This document shows, one piece after another, positions 1,560 to 42,896 of a stretch of DNA of 64,000 bases. The stretch is taken from the IMG/VR virus record IMGVR_UViG_3300025009_000011; one strand, given 5' to 3'. A program made the position numbers and the translations under genes. Source of the stretch: a virus. Positions within the stretch are counted from its first letter, which is position 1. Each line of letters opens with the position of its first letter. Below the pieces are notes generated by a model that saw only the letters and a list, made by a program, of their open reading frames with translations, was not told where the DNA came from and did not search any database.

Positions 1560-2499
1560 ACTCAAACATCGTTATATTCCCCGCACTCTCTGGCAACACT
1601 ACAGATTCAAGGTTCTTCCTATTCTGATTAAAATAACTTTCCTTCAGTTCAATTCCTATCGACTTCCGGCCCATCTCTAAGGCAACATAACCAGTCGATC
1701 CAACTCCTGCAAATGGGTCAAACACAACATCACCCGTATTAGACCACAACTGCACACCGCGACCAATTATATCCATGCTCATTGGGCAAATATGGCGCTG
1801 GTCGGCATCCTCTCTAGCCACTTTATGATTCAATGTGTTTCCAAAGTTAATGTCCATCCAGACCGGGGAAGCATATCTGCGCCATCGTTCGTGCTGCAAT
1901 GTTCCTTCTGTTGGTTCGTTCTCCCCAATGAAGTAATCTAGTCCGTTTTCATGGAATACTCGTTCCTCATTAACCCCAGGCTTGCGAAATGCTAACAGAT
2001 ATTGAGGTATTCCGGCCCGACACATTGCCGAATCCTTGCATAGTTGCTTGTGCATTAGTCCCAATGCCTTAGTTCTCACAGCTTCGATTAGCGGGTCCTT
2101 CCACATGCAATGCTCGCTATGAAAGATGAACCCTGCATCAATGAATAGTCGAATCAGATCACCCCTAAAGTCATGTAGCCCAATATATCCGTCTCGTTCC
2201 TTCATGGCTGGGATATTCATGCAATCTATCGCGACTATGCGACCGGGCTTTGTTATCCGCATAAGTTCGTTTATCAGGTATCCAAAGTGTTTGTAGAACT
2301 CTGAGCTAGTCCGGCAATTGCCAAGGTCCCTAGGAGAATCTGAATAGCAATATAAATTTTTATATGGAGGGGACGTCATTGTTAGGTGAACTGAATCAGT
2401 AGGTATAGCCCTAATAACCTCTACACAATCTCCGTTATAAATTGAGTAATTTTCCTTAATAACAAGATTATCAACCTTTATTTCTGAGATATTAACCAT
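1558..2499 (-). CDS. DNA methyltransferase (N4-C/N6-A, beta-class motif order)
   Basis: SPPY motif (TSPPYKNLY) lies upstream of DPFAGVGSTG, the AdoMet motif. Confidence 0.85.
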   Translation of the reverse strand: MVNISEIKVDNLVIKENYSIYNGDCVEVIRAIPTDSVHLTMTSPPYKNLYCYSDSPRDLGNCRTSSEFYKHFGYLINELMRITKPGRIVAIDCMNIPAMKERDGYIGLHDFRGDLIRLFIDAGFIFHSEHCMWKDPLIEAVRTKALGLMHKQLCKDSAMCRAGIPQYLLAFRKPGVNEERVFHENGLDYFIGENEPTEGTLQHERWRRYASPVWMDINFGNTLNHKVAREDADQRHICPMSMDIIGRGVQLWSNTGDVVFDPFAGVGSTGYVALEMGRKSIGIELKESYFNQNRKNLESVVLPESAGNITMFE

Positions 2500-3254
2500 G
2501 ATGGTAAAATCATCTCCTTCAGTATAAATTTTTTATCAACATTTTTCTTACTGTGAATAAATAGGTGGCACTTTTTGCATAGTAAAACAAGATTATCTGG
2601 ATTTTTGCGTAAAAACTTATAACTAACGAACGGATACATATGATGGATGTTAAATTTTTCTTCGTTTTTATCCACAAGTCTATGATCCTTGCCACAAAGT
2701 TCGCATATCGCATTAGCCCTTTTCCATACAGCCTTTACCGCGTCTTTCCATTCTTGGCTTGAGTATTCAGCCTGTCTGTCGGGAGAAATTCCTCCCCGCC
2801 AACTTGCCGGCTTAGCCCCTGGATATTTCAACCAATGTTTACCGTTCTTTAAGTAGGGAACATGGCCATCTTTAAGCCTAAGTATGCGTTTGTTTTCCTT
2901 GAATTCCTCGGTGTGATGCTTTCCCTTAAAGGGTGGGTCTTCACCCCTTAGATGCCAATTAAATCCTTCCCTTTTCTCCCACCCTGTTCCTCTTTTTCTA
3001 GTTTCTATACCTTCATTCACTAACCATTCATAAACGCGCTTTGGATCACGTTTAACAATCTCTGCAATCTCATATGAACTAAGGCCCTCAACGATGTATT
3101 TCTGATATAACCACTCCTTATTAACTGGTTTTTGGTCGCGTTGCCACGAAGCCTTGCAATCCATGTTGCAAAAATGCATACCACCCTTAGTCTTATACCT
3201 TTTAATATTTGCCCCACATTTAGTACAAACGACATCTAACTTCAAAATAACCAC
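2478..3254 (-). CDS. HNH endonuclease with N-terminal zinc finger/HTH
   Basis: C-terminal NIHHMYPF..NLVLLCKKCHLFIH and N-terminal CTKCG..CNMDC. Overlaps the methylase start by 22 nt. Confidence 0.75.
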   Translation of the reverse strand: MVILKLDVVCTKCGANIKRYKTKGGMHFCNMDCKASWQRDQKPVNKEWLYQKYIVEGLSSYEIAEIVKRDPKRVYEWLVNEGIETRKRGTGWEKREGFNWHLRGEDPPFKGKHHTEEFKENKRILRLKDGHVPYLKNGKHWLKYPGAKPASWRGGISPDRQAEYSSQEWKDAVKAVWKRANAICELCGKDHRLVDKNEEKFNIHHMYPFVSYKFLRKNPDNLVLLCKKCHLFIHSKKNVDKKFILKEMILPSWLISQK

Positions 3255-3267
3255 CCCTATCTCCTTA

Positions 3268-3339
3268 ATTATATCATTATTTATCTGATAAGTAAAGATA
3301 AGTGAACACCTTTACTTATCAGTAATGATAGTATATGAT
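3268..3339. promoter_or_regulatory. symmetric divergent promoters with 13-bp inverted repeat
   Basis: Repeat arms CTGATAAGTAAAG 3285-3297 and CTTTACTTATCAG 3310-3322; each arm contains a TTACTT -35 box. Leftward -10 is TATAAT (3268-3273 rc). Rightward -10 is TATGAT 3334-3339. Both spacers are 16 nt. Confidence 0.6.
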
Positions 3340-3366
3340 ATAATTAAAACGTCAGGGGGATTTGAT

Positions 3367-3507
3367 ATGGCAACCGAAAAAGTATCTTTCACAATTGATA
3401 AGGAAATAATGGTGCGAATTAAGGAATTAGCCGAAAATGAAAAGCGCAGTACAAGTAAAATGGTATCAATATTATTAGATGAGTCACTCGCCAACCGGAA
3501 GAAATAG
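3367..3507 (+). CDS. ribbon-helix-helix small DNA-binding protein, paralog 2
   Basis: ATG 3367 follows SD AGGGGGA. MATEKVSFTIDKEIMVRIKELAENEKRSTSKMVSILLDESL. Confidence 0.65.
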   Translation: MATEKVSFTIDKEIMVRIKELAENEKRSTSKMVSILLDESLANRKK

Positions 3508-3518
3508 CTTCCGGTTTT
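3493..3518 (+). terminator. hairpin terminator overlapping RHH stop
   Basis: AACCGGAAG (3493-3501) pairs with CTTCCGGTT (3508-3516), followed by TT. Confidence 0.5.
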
Positions 3519-3519
3519 C

Positions 3520-4896
3520 CTATGCCCCTTTTAACCATTCCGGAATAACAGCTTTGCATGTTGGCATATAATCCGTCTGTTCCCTCTTTGTACCCCGGAC
3601 ATCAGCACTCGTTATGTTTTGTGTATACTTGACCATCTCATTAATCATCAGCATTGCATCTCGCTCTTTTCTCTCTATATTTGCGACAACCGCGCCCTCT
3701 GTATGGGCCGTTATTATATGGACGTTGACCTCTTTGTTCTGGCCGAATCTCCAACATCGCCTAACCGCCTGATAGAACGCCTCATAGCTGTCTGATAGTC
3801 CAACGAATGCGACATTGTTGCAATGTTGCCAGTTAAGTCCATGACCTGCGATCGAAGGTTTTGTAACCAGTATCCGAACATCTCCACTAGAAAACCCGAC
3901 CATCGAACTCTCTTTGTGATCCTGTTTATCACTGCCTTTTACTTCTACCGCATCAACTATGGACTTCCTGAGCGCTTCGCTTTCTGCGTTTAAGTCGCAC
4001 CATATTACCCATGGTTCATGGATTTGATTTACTATGAACGCACATTTTCTTACCCTATCCTCTATACTCGTCCTGCGAGCCGCCTGACGCTCCTGTAATG
4101 TCATTGCTTCGATAGCGAATAACATACCGTCAGGAGGTTGACTAGTCGTTACCGTGTGTTGGTGCATTTTTAATTCAGGGAGGACATAATCCCCATCCTC
4201 ATACCCTAAGTCTGATGGCTTGCGAATTACTACAGCCCAAGAAGATACCCATTCCCAATATTTCTGAGCAGCATGTCCCTTAACTCGCCATTTACTTGTC
4301 TCGCCGGAATCATGCGTAAAGAACATTGCTAACATTTCGGATCGTTTCTGGACCCCTAAAAACTCTGAATGATTACCTAATTCCATGTAGTCGTTCGGGG
4401 CCGGGGTAGCGGTACAAGCTAATTTATACGGAGTGTTTAGAAACGAATCAGTTATGGCAATCCTAGTCTTAGAGTTCATTCCTTTTAGAATGCTGGATTC
4501 ATCCAAAATAATTCCTGTGAATTTTGATGGGTCGAAGTGGTGTAACATTTCATAGTTTGTAATGTTTATCCCAGGCTTAACGTCTGCTTGAGTTCGGCAC
4601 ACATGGACTGCTATGCCAAATTTCTCGCCCTCTTTAGCGGTTTGTTTACTTACTGCCAAGGGAGCCAATATAAGCACGTTCCCACCTGTGTACTTATTAA
4701 CTTTTTTTCCCCACTCTAACTGCATAGGAGTTTTTCCAAGGCCACAATCAGCGAATATAGCAGACCTGCCTTTCTTTAGTGCCCATCGAACTATATCCTT
4801 TTGAAAGTCGAACAACTTATCGTTTATATCCGTTACTTCAAACCCAACGGGCTGAGTAATGATCTTTTTTGATTCTATAAACTCGCTATACTCCAT
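3520..4896 (-). CDS. SNF2-family helicase
   Basis: Motif I ADCGLGKT, motif II ILDESS, and C-terminal helicase motifs (..RRCWRFGQ..). Confidence 0.85.
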   Translation of the reverse strand: MEYSEFIESKKIITQPVGFEVTDINDKLFDFQKDIVRWALKKGRSAIFADCGLGKTPMQLEWGKKVNKYTGGNVLILAPLAVSKQTAKEGEKFGIAVHVCRTQADVKPGINITNYEMLHHFDPSKFTGIILDESSILKGMNSKTRIAITDSFLNTPYKLACTATPAPNDYMELGNHSEFLGVQKRSEMLAMFFTHDSGETSKWRVKGHAAQKYWEWVSSWAVVIRKPSDLGYEDGDYVLPELKMHQHTVTTSQPPDGMLFAIEAMTLQERQAARRTSIEDRVRKCAFIVNQIHEPWVIWCDLNAESEALRKSIVDAVEVKGSDKQDHKESSMVGFSSGDVRILVTKPSIAGHGLNWQHCNNVAFVGLSDSYEAFYQAVRRCWRFGQNKEVNVHIITAHTEGAVVANIERKERDAMLMINEMVKYTQNITSADVRGTKREQTDYMPTCKAVIPEWLKGA

Positions 4897-5148
4897 CTAT
4901 TTCACGCCTTTAGCCAAAATGTCACTCGCACAGGCCCTGCAAACTTTATCCCCATGCCACGCCACAACCTTGATATCCGATCCGCAGAACATACATCCTA
5001 CCGAACGCTTCTGGATACGCAACCCTTTTCCGTCCGATAGCATTTCTAAAGGCGTAGTTGGTTCGTAACCCATTGTCAATCGTAGTGATTTGGGTATCGT
5101 GATTCTTCCGAAAGAGTCAATTGTTACCGAGATTCCTAGTGGCTTCAT
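4897..5148 (-). CDS. AbrB/SpoVT-type DNA-binding protein with C-terminal zinc ribbon
   Basis: DSFGRITIPKSLR looped-hinge motif, and CGSD..CRAC. Confidence 0.6.
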   Translation of the reverse strand: MKPLGISVTIDSFGRITIPKSLRLTMGYEPTTPLEMLSDGKGLRIQKRSVGCMFCGSDIKVVAWHGDKVCRACASDILAKGVK

Positions 5149-15062: not shown

Positions 15063-15311
15063 CTATTCTTTATAAGGCCATATCCATCCTTCGTCATCGT
15101 GTATAACCTCAACTACGTATTCATCCAGACCTAATGATGGCATTGTGTTCCTATTTTCATATATTATGGCATGACCTAAATCATCAGAGAAGCAATCATC
15201 ACCCGTTAATTCCCTTAAATATTCTTCCTTCCCATTGACTAATAGTCCTATTGCATACTTCTTGACTTCACTAGTTGCATTTTTATTAATTTCCGCGTTA
15301 ATCTCATTCAT
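15063..15311 (-). CDS. hypothetical protein
   Basis: 82-aa ORF after SD GGGGTGAAGAGGG. Confidence 0.5.
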   Translation of the reverse strand: MNEINAEINKNATSEVKKYAIGLLVNGKEEYLRELTGDDCFSDDLGHAIIYENRNTMPSLGLDEYVVEVIHDDEGWIWPYKE

Positions 15312-15334
15312 CCCTCTTCACCCCTACAATATTC

Positions 15335-15470
15335 TCAGTCCATCAACCTACCTACAGTAATAGGTTTATTGCATTTAGGACATAAATTCAAATCATCATC
15401 CCTATGGATATATTTAAAGAACTTCTCGTTCCTTGACACAACTCTGCTTTCTCCGCAATTGCTTTTATAT
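15335..15470 (-). pseudogene. 3' part of a 52-aa zinc-ribbon gene split by the TnpB element (5' part 16958-16980)
   Basis: Joining 16980-16958 to 15470-15335 gives MPEYCKWLYKSNCGESRVVSRNEKFFKYIHRDDDLNLCPKCNKPITVGRLMD, with an SD upstream of 16980. Confidence 0.6.
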
Positions 15471-15479
15471 AACCATTTG

Positions 15480-15640
15480 TTATGATCTTTGAACCTCCCT
15501 CCGCTTTAGAAGCGGGGGATTCTTGGGAACACCTCAACCAATGTTGAAGTTTAACTAAGCTATCCCTGTAGTCCCTACAGTTCTTTAGCACTATGCTAAT
15601 AGTCGAAGCCCTTCGGCAAGTATGTTCTTTGCCGCATTTA
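15480..15640 (-). ncRNA. candidate TnpB omega (right-end) RNA scaffold
   Basis: Dense stems at and after the tnpB stop: 15566-15580 CTGTAG/CTACAG, 15532-15549 and 15495-15518. Exact ends not determined. Confidence 0.5.
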
Positions 15641-16685
15641 AGTCTCTGTCGTGTTCAGTATGGCAACTTGGGCATTCCCATGTTCTAAGATTCAAATTTT
15701 TAACTTCCTTGTTGCGATAGCCACAACATGAACAAAGTTGGCTTGATGGGAATGTCCTGCCTATCACTGAAACGATTCGCCCATACCATTTGGATTTATA
15801 TTCTAACATGGTACGAAATTCAGACCAACCAACATCTGCAATAGATTTAGCAAGTTTATGATTTTTGATCATGTTGCTAGTTTGCAAATCTTCAATGCAA
15901 ATGATTTGGTTGTTCCGAATCACCTCAGTAGATAATTTTTGCAAGAAGTCACGCCGACAATTAGCTATCTTTTCATGATGTTTGGCAAGCTTGACTCTAG
16001 CCTTATTGCGGTTTTTGCTACCCTTTTGTTTTCGGGATAGTGAACGTTGGAGCTTGGTAAGTTTTTTCTCCATCTTGCGGTAATATTTTGGATTGTGCAT
16101 CTTCTCTCCGGTTGATAAAATGGCAAAATCCTTAATACCTAAGTCGATGCCGACGAATTGATTGACTTCCGGTAATAATTCAATTTCAGTATCGACTAAT
16201 ATGGATACAAAATATTTACCTGAAGGATTACGCCTAACGGTGGCACTAATGATCTGACCATCAACTTCTCTAGATTTAGCAAATTTAACGAATCCTAGCT
16301 TTGGTAATTTAACCATATTATCGACTATTCGTATATTAGAATTAGTGCATTTACTTGTATATGACTGAACCGGATTGCGTTTTGATTTGAATTTAGGATA
16401 CCCAGTCTTTTCCTTAAAGAACTTTTGATACGCAAAATCTAAATCTTTCAAGGTGGATTGCAATGATGTAGAATCTGGTTCTTTTAGCCATTCAAATTCT
16501 TTCTTTAATTTAGTCAGCATTGCGGAACATCCATTGTAGTTGATAGTTGCATCATATATTTCATAGGCGTTTTTGCGTTCATTCAAAAAGTGATTGTATA
16601 CAAAACGATTACATCCAATAGTTTTGGCTATTAATACTTGCTGCTCATTACTTGGATACAACCTAAATTTAAACGCTTTATGCAA
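15591..16685 (-). CDS. tnpB: RNA-guided endonuclease TnpB (IS200/IS605 OrfB)
   Basis: [11 protein letters not shown] start, [10 protein letters not shown] RuvC-I motif, and zinc finger [32 protein letters not shown] start after GGAGGTG. Confidence 0.9.
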
Positions 16686-16704
16686 TTGACTAACACCTCC
16701 TTTC

Positions 16705-16744
16705 TTGATACACTAATTATAGCACGTAATTACGTGCAAAACAA
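16705..16744. promoter_or_regulatory. divergent tnpB/RHH promoters with 16-bp perfect palindrome
   Basis: GCACGTAATTACGTGC at 16722-16737 lies in the spacer of the leftward promoter (TTGTTT 16739-16744 rc, 17 nt, TATAAT 16716-16721 rc). Rightward -35 is TTGATA 16705-16710. Confidence 0.55.
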
Positions 16745-16760
16745 GAAGGAAGTGCTAGTT

Positions 16761-16913
16761 ATGAGAGTTAAATTCACGACTACTTTAGATTCTGAATTAC
16801 TGGAAAAGATTAAGATTCGGGCCATTAAGGAAAAAACAGATGTTAGCAAGATACTTGAAACGTTGATTGAGAAGTACCTAACGGAAGGGATCGACGATTC
16901 ATCTCCCACCTAA
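16761..16913 (+). CDS. ribbon-helix-helix small DNA-binding protein, paralog 3 (inside the IS element)
   Basis: ATG 16761 follows AGGAAG. MRVKFTTTLDSELLEKIKIRAIKEKTDVSKILETLIEKYL. Confidence 0.65.
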   Translation: MRVKFTTTLDSELLEKIKIRAIKEKTDVSKILETLIEKYLTEGIDDSSPT

Positions 16914-16923
16914 GAGGTGGGAG
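16903..16923. terminator. hairpin: RHH terminator and candidate IS left-end hairpin
   Basis: CTCCCACCT-AAG-AGGTGGGAG, with the stop codon in the loop. Confidence 0.5.
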
Positions 16924-16993
16924 TATTCTCTCCGAACGTAGGATAAATTCTATACAAAACCATTTGCAGTATTCAGGCATTCTGCTTCACCCC

Positions 16994-17320
16994 CTACAAT
17001 ATTGATTTTTCAAATTCTAAGTTATCCTCAATATTTATGACAAGCTTACTACTCGGTATATCTATGACATATTTTATACCTAACCTCGTTAATGTATCCC
17101 GCAATTTACCTACTACTTCCATTCGCTTTTTTAGTTCAAGATCAACCCCCAAGGCCTCCCTTGCCGCCTCCCACACCATCATGAAGTCATCACTAGCAAA
17201 TATCCTGCGTGTATTTTTATGTCCCATCGAATCACTCGTTTTCTGGCATTGTCTCAGTAGTCCTTCAAGGGCATTTTCTAACTCTATAATTCTTTCTGTA
17301 CTGTCATTTGACGAACTCAT
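16994..17320 (-). CDS. hypothetical protein
   Basis: Start taken at MSSSNDSTER after SD GGGAGGGAAG. Confidence 0.45.
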   Translation of the reverse strand: MSSSNDSTERIIELENALEGLLRQCQKTSDSMGHKNTRRIFASDDFMMVWEAAREALGVDLELKKRMEVVGKLRDTLTRLGIKYVIDIPSSKLVINIEDNLEFEKSIL

Positions 17321-17696
17321 TTCTTCCCTCCCTAAATACATCCTCAATCCTCTCAACCATCTCCACAGGCAGCGCAACCCGACACATCTCATAATCACTA
17401 TACGTTGCAGGAGATATACCTAATAACCGCGACATCTTCATAATAGTGATAAGTAGCGACCTCCTTCTGCTTCTGATTAACTCCATGAATATCTTATTCC
17501 TTCTGTTGATTTCAGCATTCAACTCTTTCTCTCTTGATGCATCTACCTCAAGTCTTACCCTATTATGTTTCAACTCACAGTTTAGATTGTGGCAATCATA
17601 CGTCCTGCCATACGTTCCGTTCGGACCATCCCATAGGCCGAGGATGTATTTAGTTGGAGTTGCGCAGGTTTGGCAGTTCATTTTATATCCCTCCAT
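17304..17696 (-). CDS. zinc-ribbon plus HTH protein
   Basis: CQTC..C..C at the N-terminus. C-terminal LLITIMKMSRLLGISPATYSDYE is XRE-like. Confidence 0.5.
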   Translation of the reverse strand: MEGYKMNCQTCATPTKYILGLWDGPNGTYGRTYDCHNLNCELKHNRVRLEVDASREKELNAEINRRNKIFMELIRSRRRSLLITIMKMSRLLGISPATYSDYEMCRVALPVEMVERIEDVFREGRNEFVK

Positions 17697-17983
17697 GCAT
17701 TTGAGGGTGATTCACGCATTATTCGCTTAACTAAATCATCTTGTAAAGCATCCGATCTTTCGGCTAAATGTACAATAGCCCTCAGGAGTGCATTTTCATA
17801 TGATATGTCGCCGCTTCTGTAGAATTTGAGACAAGTATTGACGATTGTGTTGTTAAGGTAAAGCTCTCCATTTACAAACTCTTTTAACTCATCATGGTTA
17901 TTCATGCCGATGTCTTTGTAGTTGGTGTTATTTATCATCGCCCCTACTCCACTTGTCATGGGTTTTCTACTTCTTCCTGCCAT
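17678..17983 (-). CDS. hypothetical protein
   Basis: ORF in operon. Confidence 0.4.
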   Translation of the reverse strand: MAGRSRKPMTSGVGAMINNTNYKDIGMNNHDELKEFVNGELYLNNTIVNTCLKFYRSGDISYENALLRAIVHLAERSDALQDDLVKRIMRESPSNAWRDIK

Positions 17984-17985
17984 TG

Positions 17986-18333
17986 TTATTCTCCACCCTT
18001 CTCATACTTATTGCCGATAACTTCGCATATTCTCCCGTCTACACAGAGCAGTTCTGATAATATTAACTCATCGGTCTGGAAACAACCATCTCCAAATGAT
18101 ATAAGTTGAAGGTTTACTCTTCCAGATATTCTTAAGTAATCATCCTCGTAGATTTCCAACCCATTTTTATCGAGAAGGCCAGTAAACTGCATCAACACAA
18201 ACTCACTCGGTTGCAATCCGCTTTCAGTGCAAATGCGCTTATTCTCTAAGTCAATCCAACGAGGATACGACATGTACCATCCTTCGCCTGTTTCACTTTT
18301 TACCCATGCTCTGAATTTTGGGAAGTTGGTCAT
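17986..18333 (-). CDS. YopX-family protein
   Basis: KFRAW..MQFTGLLDKNGLEIYEDDYL. Confidence 0.75.
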   Translation of the reverse strand: MTNFPKFRAWVKSETGEGWYMSYPRWIDLENKRICTESGLQPSEFVLMQFTGLLDKNGLEIYEDDYLRISGRVNLQLISFGDGCFQTDELILSELLCVDGRICEVIGNKYEKGGE

Positions 18334-18593
18334 GATTGGTTGCCTTCTTTCTCGATCTCTTTCCCCTTTTTAATCCCCCATCGTAGACCTTCTTCCAAAT
18401 CTTCAAAACCTGCTTCCGCAAAATACACATCGCCAAAAGTCCATTTATCATGAACACTAACTGTGTATGTTATATTTGGCTCTCCTTCCTCAAATGTTCC
18501 ATTCTGCTTTTGATCAATAATAGTGTAATCAACCGCGATACCCTTATTAGCTAATTTCACAATGCTTTTTAATAAGTCCATCCTTATTCTCAA
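18330..18593 (-). CDS. hypothetical protein
   Basis: ORF with a 4-nt overlap. Confidence 0.45.
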   Translation of the reverse strand: MRIRMDLLKSIVKLANKGIAVDYTIIDQKQNGTFEEGEPNITYTVSVHDKWTFGDVYFAEAGFEDLEEGLRWGIKKGKEIEKEGNQS

Positions 18594-24424: not shown

Positions 24425-25459
24425 TTAAATTAGGGATAGCTGTTGGATACCGTTTTTAAGTCCAATCCATTCGTGTATTTTGGATAGTCTTTCTTCACTA
24501 AAGAAGGGTTGTCGCCTGTACCAAGTTTCCATATCGCTTTTATGTTTGCTGGAATTAACGCTTTTCTCACAGATGACAATATTTTGCCTAACATAATGCC
24601 CACCCTTACTCACGGGTATTACATGATCTTGACTAACTGAGTTCATTGGGAGTCCGGTATAGGTATCTTTATGGTTAAAGAAATTCAAGCAATCTTCTAA
24701 GTCTTTACTAGAAAAAGTTGATATAAGCAATCTTTCTTTCGCCTTTCGCTTTTGCTTCCATATGTTACGTATTCCTTTATGGGTGGCAAGCCATATCTTT
24801 TGCGTCTTAGCCAACTTTCCTTTATTATTAGCTCGATATTTTCTAGAACGCACGATATCTTTTGCCCTTATAGCCTCCTTATTGGATATACCGTATTGCT
24901 TAACCTTTACAAGAACTGTTTCGCGATTATCCTTATAGTAATCACTACTGCGTTGTATTATCACATCCCTATTATCTTTGTAATACTGTCTGTCGTATTC
25001 ATCCCATTTCTCTTTATTTTCTTCGCGGTATTGAGCAGATTGGAGATTACGGCATTTTTTACAAGTCCCCTCTATATTATTCTTGCGGCCCTTATGGACT
25101 GAAAAATATTCCTTAGTCGCTGGGAATTCCCCACCGCATTTAATGCACACTCTATGCGTTTCAATATCATTGGAAATGGAAAATTTTTTACCCTCACACT
25201 CCTTGCACGCAGAATGAAGGGCATCGCACGTATTAACGTTAGCAAAAAAATGAAACTTATCGGCGGGTAATTCGCGATTACACCTACTACATAACTTATA
25301 ACCATGCATCACTAAAATTTTAGGTTTTGAAAATTTAGATCCATTACATTCCTTGCAGGAAGATCGTAAGTTGTCCTTGGTGTTTTGGACGATGTAAAAA
25401 TGAAATCCGTCCGCAGGGAGTTCCCTTTTACACCTACAACAAGTCTTTACTCCATACAT
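24425..25459 (-). CDS. HNH endonuclease with three CxxC..LPADxFHF..CKEC zinc modules
   Basis: C-terminal DHVIPVSKGGHYVRQNIVICEKSVNSSKHKSDMETWY. Its tail is paralogous to 41295-42896. Confidence 0.8.
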   Translation of the reverse strand: MYGVKTCCRCKRELPADGFHFYIVQNTKDNLRSSCKECNGSKFSKPKILVMHGYKLCSRCNRELPADKFHFFANVNTCDALHSACKECEGKKFSISNDIETHRVCIKCGGEFPATKEYFSVHKGRKNNIEGTCKKCRNLQSAQYREENKEKWDEYDRQYYKDNRDVIIQRSSDYYKDNRETVLVKVKQYGISNKEAIRAKDIVRSRKYRANNKGKLAKTQKIWLATHKGIRNIWKQKRKAKERLLISTFSSKDLEDCLNFFNHKDTYTGLPMNSVSQDHVIPVSKGGHYVRQNIVICEKSVNSSKHKSDMETWYRRQPFFSEERLSKIHEWIGLKNGIQQLSLI

Positions 25460-41294: not shown

Positions 41295-42896
41295 TTAGTA
41301 GAGTGCTAGTTGTTGGGTGTTTGATTTTGAGTCGAAGCCGATCCATGAGTGGATTTTTGTTAGGCGTTCGGGGGAGAACGATGGCTGTTTTGGATACCAC
41401 TCTTCTAATGAATGGTTATGCTTACTAGAATTACAAGATTTGCAAGCAGGGAGCATATTTTTCTTAGTATAACCACCACCGGAAGATACCGGAATCACAT
41501 GGTCCTGTTGAACATTGGTTAGTTTATCGCCACAATATACACAACAGTTTCCGAAAGATTCGAGGGTATCAAGCCACTGCTCAGGAGTTAGAGTCGCGAC
41601 TGCATTTTTCTTCTTCGCGTCCCTACGCTTGCCAATGGCGATTATGCGCTCTTTGCCCTCTCCGCGATAATAAAGGTTATACCGATTACGATATTTTTCA
41701 GGATTCGCTTTTCGCTGTTCAGCCTTACGCTTCATTACTTCGGGTCGTTTGCTGTATTCCCTAGCAATAACTCGAATGTTCTCGCGGTTAGCCTCCCTGC
41801 GCTTTGTTGCCTTTTCATTTATGACATCCTTGTTTTCTACGTAGTATGCCGACTTCTTTTCTTTGCCGCCGTTTTGGTATCTTTCGCGACTACGAGCGTT
41901 CGATTCATCCTTGTTTTTGTCATGACTCTTCTTTTGCCGTTCCCTTATCGCATCCCGATTAGTGGCGTAATTACCAATCCCTTGCAATGAGGTACATTTC
42001 TTGCAAGTGCTTTTTAATTTAGCGACTCCATTATCAACACGTTTATGGAAGAATTCTTCCGTTGCTAGTAATTCGTCACCGCACTTTATGCAGAATTTAT
42101 ACCCCTCTTTTGCAATTAGTTTTACGGGTTTTTCCGGTTTTGGTTTCGCTCGCTTGCGGTTCTCGACTATGGTTCTGCAGGAACGACTACAATATAATGC
42201 CTTTCCGCTTGCAATGCGATGGGGTGGAACCTCAAATTCGATACCGCAATTTGAGCAAACAACCTTGAACCAATTCGGCCTACTGGCTTTAGTTAGCTCA
42301 TCCGAGTCTTTAAGTTTTACATGACCAGCATCCGAGCATTCTTTCGAACAATACTTTCCTGAACCAATAGATTGCCGATACAATGTAGTTTTGAATTCCT
42401 TACCGCATTGCTGACACGCTGTAGAGAAGAATGCAACTGACTCGCGTTTTACATATTCCTCAAAATAACAAGTTCCACAAAGAGCAATTAGGTTATCAAG
42501 ACTATGGTCTACATCTTCTCCATCGCGCGGCTGTTCCTTGTGGTACACCCCGACTTTGTTAGTAGAACCACATTTGGTACATTTATGCCCATCTCTGAGG
42601 AGAACAATCTCCCGGTTTCCGCCAAACATCTTTTTGTCGTGATGACGCATAGCGCCTCGATTGGATCGGGCTTTCAATCTCTCGCTGTTTGCATCGCGCC
42701 AACATTCCTCGGAGCAGAATACTTGTTTGCCGTTAACTGGTTCGAACTTCTCCTTGCAGTTAGGGCAGAAATGTTCTCTTGTGTTAAAGTGGCCATTTCT
42801 AATCCTCTTGGCTTGCTTTGTACATTCCGGAGAACAGTTCACAGTTGGACCAAGTGCATTGAATTCCTTACTACATACTGGACAATTTTTAATCAT
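41295..42896 (-). CDS. HNH endonuclease with multiple zinc fingers and long basic region
   Basis: C-terminal DHVIPVSSGGGYTKKNMLPACKSCNSSKHNHSLEEWY. Inserted directly after the capsid gene. Confidence 0.8.
   Translation of the reverse strand: MIKNCPVCSKEFNALGPTVNCSPECTKQAKRIRNGHFNTREHFCPNCKEKFEPVNGKQVFCSEECWRDANSERLKARSNRGAMRHHDKKMFGGNREIVLLRDGHKCTKCGSTNKVGVYHKEQPRDGEDVDHSLDNLIALCGTCYFEEYVKRESVAFFSTACQQCGKEFKTTLYRQSIGSGKYCSKECSDAGHVKLKDSDELTKASRPNWFKVVCSNCGIEFEVPPHRIASGKALYCSRSCRTIVENRKRAKPKPEKPVKLIAKEGYKFCIKCGDELLATEEFFHKRVDNGVAKLKSTCKKCTSLQGIGNYATNRDAIRERQKKSHDKNKDESNARSRERYQNGGKEKKSAYYVENKDVINEKATKRREANRENIRVIAREYSKRPEVMKRKAEQRKANPEKYRNRYNLYYRGEGKERIIAIGKRRDAKKKNAVATLTPEQWLDTLESFGNCCVYCGDKLTNVQQDHVIPVSSGGGYTKKNMLPACKSCNSSKHNHSLEEWYPKQPSFSPERLTKIHSWIGFDSKSNTQQLALY

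Follow-up and report, generated by a model that had tools for sequence, protein, structure and literature searches.

Introduction

Ribbon-helix-helix (RHH) proteins termed Arc were reported inside IS605-family elements and IStrons in 2023 (10.1101/2023.11.20.567912). Moon, Zedaveinyte, Wiegand and Sternberg, using ChIP-seq, reporters and mutagenesis, found that Arc binds the intergenic promoter and represses tnpB, and their work explicitly covers elements that contain only arc and tnpB (bioRxiv 10.64898/2026.09.24.754181). Here we analyzed such an insertion sequence (IS) in phage DNA, located in IMG/VR virus record IMGVR_UViG_3300025009_000011 (a stretch of 64,000 nucleotides, referred to as the window). 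Very probably it is a non-autonomous IS200/IS605 element of 1,454 bp that carries an Arc-like RHH gene, tnpB and an omega RNA (ωRNA), interrupts a 63-aa Cys-rich phage gene and would be moved in trans, direct its guide against the empty allele and be repressed by Arc.

A sequence-only reading of this DNA had pointed to an RHH gene in the place of tnpA. The RHH gene does lie inside the element, but RHH genes in IS605-type elements are known: the protein is the Arc of the IS605 family, which has been described and tested before. The window element shares with the Arc-containing elements an RHH protein of about 50 aa that is encoded inside the IS boundaries and divergently from tnpB, and an inverted repeat that overlaps back-to-back promoters, here recognized from sequence alone, with GCACGTAATTACGTGC as the candidate operator. 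In the tested elements of P. xylanilyticum and C. botulinum arc sits with tnpA, whereas the window element has no tnpA and resides in a phage genome; the likeness is one of fold and layout. The Arc strand residues are of the K4/T6/T8 type, compared with Asn5/Asn7/Thr9 in published Arc (10.64898/2026.09.24.754181).

ISGst2-type elements of Geobacillus stearothermophilus are described in the cited passages of Meers et al. (10.1101/2023.03.14.532601) as tnpB-only, non-autonomous IS200/IS605 elements with an ωRNA that overlaps the 3' end of tnpB and the right end. Mobilization in trans by a Y1 TnpA is expected for them, and TnpB cleaves the donor joint left by excision. According to the same passages, the experimentally defined target-adjacent motif (TAM) of ISGst2 TnpB2 is TTTAT. 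The window element resembles this description in its type, its TAM and the place of its predicted ωRNA, and would likewise be mobilized in trans, with TnpB cleaving the joint; no Arc gene is met in these passages, and the likeness is by description. A related copy in Geobacillus virus E3 (64% TnpB identity) has the RHH gene. In archaea, RHH/MazE-TnpB pairs with the RHH gene upstream of tnpB were put forward as putative toxin-antitoxin pairs; they are non-mobile and their RuvC-III motif is rearranged (D to H) (Altae-Tran et al., PMC10691335). In the window an RHH gene likewise adjoins tnpB, but RuvC-III keeps its D, the two genes are transcribed divergently and the pair sits in a mobile insert.

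ISDra2 is an autonomous element that has tnpA, and its TAM is TTGAT. It is not known to have an Arc gene. The TnpB of the window matches that of the ISDra2 TnpB-ωRNA complex (PDB 8exa/8bf8/8h1j) over its full length, including the RuvC D/E/D residues and the zinc finger.

Results and discussion

Uninterrupted alleles define the element ends

Two contigs with the empty site were found via a neighbouring 134-aa gene (L132, IMGVR_UViG_3300001041_000425; L133, IMGVR_UViG_3300024999_001294), and relatives of the element were retrieved by a TnpB search. In L132, window positions 18500..16943 are contiguous with 15488..15321; in L133, positions 17683..16943 are contiguous with 15488..15321. The join reads ...GAATTTAT/AGATCATAACAAATGGTT... 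in both (slash, junction), or ...TGCAAATGGTTTTGTATAGAATTTAT/AGATCATAACAAATGGTTATATAAAAG... in a longer form. Since the bases differ on both sides of each junction, the insert 15489-16942 is unambiguous. The empty allele is ...TTTAT/AGATC... and the filled allele ...TTTAT/IS/AGATC..., showing that the insertion is canonical for IS200/IS605 elements, 3' of TTTAT and without target duplication. The element and its ends are as follows.

15489..16942, minus strand (the top strand of the element is the minus strand of the window): whole IS, 1,454 bp, from the empty-site contigs L132 and L133
16943..16947, minus strand: TAM or target pentanucleotide TTTAT, directly 5' of the left end, in the phage gene and outside the element
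16895..16942, minus strand: left end with the subterminal imperfect hairpin CTCCCACC-TCTTA-GGTGGGAG at 16903-16923, then GATGAATCG, from relatives and a scan for terminator-like sequences
15495..15518, minus strand: right-end hairpin CCCCCGCUU-CUA-AAGCGGAGGG with one bulged A; all relatives have a hairpin here, with different stem sequences

TTTAT, which is also present at the empty site, abuts the left end in 10 related element copies. These share one architecture, TTTAT/left-end hairpin, then GATGAA ... right-end hairpin and (G)TTCAA or GTCAA/, which when applied to the window gives 16942 as the left and 15489 as the right end. Subterminal imperfect hairpins are located at both ends, without terminal inverted repeats, and their positions are kept in relatives although the stems differ in sequence. 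In Laceyella putida a related element is present in three copies, which are 94-97% identical over approximately 1,480 bp with the RHH gene included and diverge outside exactly these end points. The left hairpin and a GATGAAT motif are found at a constant distance from TTTAT in relatives with RHH, without RHH and with tnpA. Because it is kept in RHH-less relatives, the left-end hairpin is first of all a structure of the IS end; in the window the C-terminus of the RHH protein (SSPT*) is also encoded there, and the hairpin resembles a terminator. The overlap of the RHH 3' end with the left-end hairpin, noticed in the sequence-only reading, holds.

Neither the TAM candidates of that reading (TACTG, TGGTT) nor its guide candidates hold; TTTAT is the TAM, and AGATCATAACAAATGG(TTAT) the predicted guide. 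Searches for further copies within the window yielded no right-end or ωRNA-like sequences and no self-matches of the element. Megablast of the 4.5-kb region against INPHARED phages gave no match, and distant blastn of the element against phages detected diverged tnpB genes only, none of which defines ends.

TnpB and the transposase lineage

15591..16685, minus strand: tnpB, 364 aa, TTG start, ribosome-binding site AAAGGAGGTG, from Pfam and alignment with ISDra2 TnpB

The tnpB product matched the Pfam families OrfB_IS605 (4e-29), Cas12f1-like_TNB (2e-24) and HTH_OrfB_IS605 (9e-19). It aligned end to end with ISDra2 TnpB (8bf8/8exa; E=4.5e-105), with the RuvC D/E/D residues (in GIDLG, IEDL and HDRD) and the CxxC..CxxC zinc finger kept, and is apparently catalytically intact. 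These matches, and the outcome of the search for tnpA in the window, bear out the assignment to a tnpB-only element of the IS200/IS605 type. In four relatives with 54-67% TnpB identity (L044, L081, L083 and L020), the gene directly upstream of tnpB encodes Y1_Tnp (E 5e-33 to 4e-45), and two of them, L081 and L083, have TTTAT and the left-end layout as in the window. By the gene content of these relatives, the lineage is of the Y1 type. The IS607 family, which uses a serine-recombinase TnpA, was rejected, since the autonomous relatives carry Y1_Tnp and not a resolvase.

The Arc-like gene and its putative operator

16761..16913, plus strand: arc-like RHH gene, 50 aa, divergent from tnpB, from Pfam, AlphaFold and relatives; the last codons (SSPT*) coincide with the left-end hairpin
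16722..16737, no strand: perfect 16-bp palindrome GCACGTAATTACGTGC, putative Arc operator, from reading of the sequence and self-match
16716..16744, minus strand: putative tnpB promoter, TTGTTT, a 17-nt spacer that is almost wholly palindrome, and TGcTATAAT (extended -10), predicted by eye
16686..16714, plus strand: putative arc promoter, TTGACT-17-TACACT with TG before the -10, from a promoter scan

The 50-aa open reading frame (ORF) matched Pfam DUF6364 (E=1e-4) and RHH_1 (E=5e-4). An AlphaFold model built from 35 homologues reached a pLDDT of 77.8, and its best structural matches were StnY, CopG, ParG, Arc and RHH antitoxins (TM 0.7-0.8). A search of PDB sequences with the RHH profile returned weak matches only (E≥0.07), several of which are RHH proteins. 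Since both the RHH gene and the promoter palindrome are inside the insert, they are cargo; the empty-site comparison and the three Laceyella copies thereby confirm an earlier proposal that both belong to the mobile unit.

Among 87 full-length TnpB loci, several of which are duplicates, a profile search found an RHH gene on the opposite strand upstream of tnpB in few lineages: the window and its duplicates, L078 (83% TnpB identity), the three Laceyella copies (L006, L007 and L031), Shimazuella L010 and the Geobacillus virus E3 type (L079/L080). Tblastn added an RHH gene beside a truncated copy in Melghirimyces (L076). Palindromes are present at the matching place in RHH-bearing relatives (ATACGTgtttACGTAT, TACGTattaACGTA, TGCGTAttTACGCA and ATGTCGTtgACGACAT; L010, L076, L006, L007 and L079/80), and most RHH-bearing relatives have one of the ACGT-N4-ACGT type. 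In the window the palindrome begins 8 nt downstream of the arc -10; the tnpB -35 is too weak for the promoter scanner. The L031 copy has an in-frame stop in its RHH gene (about 2313-2429) and a degenerate operator (CATGTATTCACGTAT); here the operator appears to have decayed in step with the loss of arc. The nearest genomic TnpB relative, from Firmicutes UBA5324 (L001, 74%), has a short left end with neither RHH gene nor palindrome. Positions 1-178 of this locus retain ...CCTCCTTTTTGCAC-TG-TATAAT, resembling a remnant of the arc ribosome-binding site of the window together with half an operator, which suggests that arc was lost there by deletion and not gained in the lineage of the window.

Homologues of the RHH protein were also found away from TnpB, in prophage-like and phage contexts; the nearest annotated ones in phages are from Brevibacillus phages and are named 'Arc-like repressor'. 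A phage-like contig (L144, JGI 3300027715, 1839-5005) contains two TnpB genes approximately 0.9 kb apart, of which the 364-aa one is divergent from a 59-aa RHH homologue. The 'SSPT' tail (16899-16913) of the RHH protein and of many homologues (P0005, P0013-P0017 and P0033; alignment A2) is encoded by left-end hairpin DNA, and in some homologues the ORF runs on through the hairpin ('SSPTFVLAKASKET'). That the tail is conserved is probably due to the hairpin in the DNA and not to a function of the protein.

The ωRNA and its predicted guide

15489..15640, minus strand: ωRNA scaffold region with its 3' end at the right end ...GGAGGTTCAA (...GGTTCAA), from covariation, folding z-score and a partial Rfam match
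15566..15580, minus strand: ωRNA stem 1, CUGUAG-GGA-CUACAG, covariation in 4 of 5 pairs
15532..15549, minus strand: ωRNA stem 2, lying within a long-range GCUUGG/CCAAG helix that is nearly invariant, from the RNAalifold consensus
15469..15488, minus strand: predicted ωRNA guide AGATCATAACAAATGGTTAT, phage DNA just beyond the right end, from its position relative to the conserved TTCAA end

Stems 3' of tnpB had been taken for an ωRNA at the right end. The stretch between the end of tnpB and the right end is highly conserved among relatives. RNAalifold analysis of 21 relatives gave 17 consensus pairs with compensatory changes in 12, and the window region folds better than shuffled versions (z=-2.98). 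Covariation shows the predicted ωRNA-like structure, to which these stems belong, to be conserved. Over 26 nt the predicted guide region is identical to the empty alleles of L132 and L133, where it directly follows TTTAT. No curated ωRNA family of Rfam was matched. A partial match to RF02841 Ref70 ('Enterococcus sRNA 70') at 15536-15586 on the minus strand remained below threshold (30.8 bits, E=0.011). It extends over ωRNA stem 1 and the segment GGGAUAGCUU, which is conserved, and the annotated Ref70 small RNA may itself be a TnpB ωRNA.

The interrupted gene and the 9-bp repeat

16943..16980, minus strand: 5' part of the split 63-aa Cys-rich gene (MPEYCKWFCIEFI...), from the empty-site comparison
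15335..15488, minus strand: 3' fragment of the interrupted gene (...DHNKWLYKSNCGES...CPKC...LMD*), from the empty-site comparison
16958..16966, plus strand: left copy of the 9-bp repeat, inside the target gene, codons ..C-K-W-F
15471..15479, plus strand: right copy of the 9-bp repeat, inside the target gene, codons ..N-K-W-L

The element had been proposed to split a zinc-ribbon gene. A small Cys-rich gene is indeed interrupted and is contiguous in L132 and L133; its intact ORF (MPEYCKWFCIEFIDHNKWLYKSNCGES...CPKCNKPITVG..) does not have the proposed 52 aa but 63 aa in the window reconstruction and 62 aa in L132/L133. Compared with L132, the reconstructed gene differs in 11 synonymous codons and 1 non-synonymous codon, which supports that the split ORF is a real coding gene. 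Pfam contained no family for the 52-aa or 63-aa ORF, for the 67-aa ORF at the junction or for the small ORFs in the flanks, and tblastn of the 52-aa ORF against phages yielded noise only (E=0.5). The 67-aa ORF (15388-15591) spans the junction between IS and target; being absent from the empty allele it cannot be a conserved gene, in line with the earlier view that it is probably non-coding.

The repeat AACCATTTG is present at 15471-15479 and 16958-16966, the sole two plus-strand copies in the window. Both CAAATGGTT copies pre-exist in the uninterrupted gene of L132 and L133, in phase, with 24 nt between them and 33 nt from start to start. Because both copies are present at the empty site, the repeat belongs to the target gene and is unrelated to transposition; it is no target duplication, nor does it reflect identity of TAM and right end. 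A transposon that makes target-site duplications was therefore rejected: neither copy abuts the insert. Likewise rejected was the idea that the 24 nt between repeat copies and IS ends are an old donor-site remnant or a second small element, since they are codons of the intact gene.

A nearly identical translation-initiation module of 18-19 nt (AATATTGTAGGGG(G)TGAAG, minus strand) precedes two successive small genes, at 15316-15333 and 16985-17003, and recurs 3' of the zinc-ribbon gene in L132 and L133. In two more distant phage relatives (L134 and L136, IMGVR 3300025011 contigs) the zinc-ribbon gene is wholly absent at the locus, and the neighbourhood is a variable small-gene region.

Alternative explanations and proposed mechanism

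The sequence-only reading described a 1.49-kb element bounded by the 9-bp direct repeat, taken as a target duplication or as identity of TAM and right end, which would have moved by a non-canonical route and would leave a 52-aa ORF on excision. The repeat does exist and has few copies in the window, and removing one copy with the interval does leave an open frame. It neither flanks the element nor fixes its ends, however: the uninterrupted alleles of L132 and L133 hold both copies, the insert starts 15 nt (left) and ends 9 nt (right) inside them, and related elements end at TTTAT/ and /after TTCAA without flanking repeats. The model is refuted and has practically no probability left, and with it the supposed oddity of a duplication-like repeat disappears. 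A different proposal concerns the RHH protein, which could be an antitoxin-like inhibitor that binds TnpB instead of a transcriptional repressor, as proposed for archaeal RHH/MazE-TnpB. RHH proteins are common antitoxins, several antitoxin RHH domains are among the structural matches, and the RHH-TnpB toxin-antitoxin idea is published (PMC10691335). The clade in question differs from the window locus in the respects given above (archaeal, non-mobile, RuvC-III D to H, as against a retained D and a divergent pair inside a mobile IS), the promoter palindrome tracks the presence of RHH, and for related Arc proteins both binding to the promoter and its repression have been demonstrated (10.64898/2026.09.24.754181). 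We regard this alternative as highly improbable; moreover, the antitoxin and repressor roles are compatible with each other.

It has also to be considered that the element is immobile and co-opted by the phage, with TnpB and a fixed-guide ωRNA used to attack or to regulate competing phages and Arc as the switch. The window lacks a detectable tnpA, the guide exactly matches element-free sibling phages, and the phage has other selfish nucleases in the form of two large ORFs with HNH endonuclease domains. Both ends, however, retain the full family architecture, and the element is polymorphic, present or absent, at a site where one flank is 99.7% identical, which points to recent transposition or excision. 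A match to the empty site is moreover the default of every IS605-family ωRNA and no evidence of co-option, which we consider unlikely. Somewhat better placed, but still a tentative idea, is that the Arc-TnpB element acts as a gene drive between co-infecting phages, in a phage that looks lytic; a step in sequence identity at the insertion would be a one-sided co-conversion tract, and Arc would time or limit the nuclease. Guide and TAM exactly match the uninterrupted allele of sibling phages from related metagenomes. Identity to L132 is 99.7% over 1,558 nt left of the IS (16943-18500), approximately 90% immediately to its right (15321-15488) and 87% further on, and an 82-aa gene (15063-15311) is replaced by other sequence in L132. 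The step could be ordinary phage mosaicism or a TnpB-triggered conversion tract from a diverged donor.

Several observations count against our preferred reading, that of a non-autonomous Arc-TnpB element mobilized in trans. Neither a tnpA nor a second tnpB was found in the 64-kb window, and the filled/empty polymorphism cannot separate insertion from precise excision. The RHH_1 match scored 20.3 bits, just below the cut-off of 20.5, and the window reads GCUUAG, which results in one A-C mismatch in the otherwise nearly invariant GCUUGG/CCAAG helix.

According to the preferred reading, an autonomous relative in the host would provide a Y1 (HUH) TnpA that moves the element in trans by single-strand 'peel-and-paste', as published for the family. 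TnpB-ωRNA with the guide AGATCATAACAAATGG(TTAT) would recognize TTTAT plus guide, which is the uninterrupted allele. A cut there would be followed by restoration of the element through recombination and would favour its retention or homing, a step modelled on the ISGst2 passages (10.1101/2023.03.14.532601). Dimers of the Arc-like RHH protein would bind GCACGTAATTACGTGC and repress tnpB, probably also arc, as published work on the family leads one to expect.

Conceptually the locus adds little, since TAM insertion without duplication, ωRNA-guided TnpB and Arc repression of IS605 promoters are all published. It provides an Arc-TnpB element in a phage with a base-exact pair of filled and empty alleles, the TAM TTTAT, a predicted guide and a candidate operator, and it illustrates how a short repeat that the target already contains can, when close to the ends of an IS, lead to wrong boundaries.

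Phage context

The window is phage DNA: besides two ORFs with HNH endonuclease domains it encodes a helicase, a portal protein and a lytic tail protein. At 17572-17739 on the minus strand, Rfam weakly matched the drz-agam-2-2 ribozyme (18.9 bits, E=0.066); the match is far under the gathering score of 38 and was taken as most likely due to chance. HNH / endonuclease VII domains were detected in the two large ORFs at 41295-42896 and 24425-25459, both on the minus strand (E down to 5e-32 with PHROG); besides TnpB, the phage carries several predicted genes that resemble selfish nucleases.

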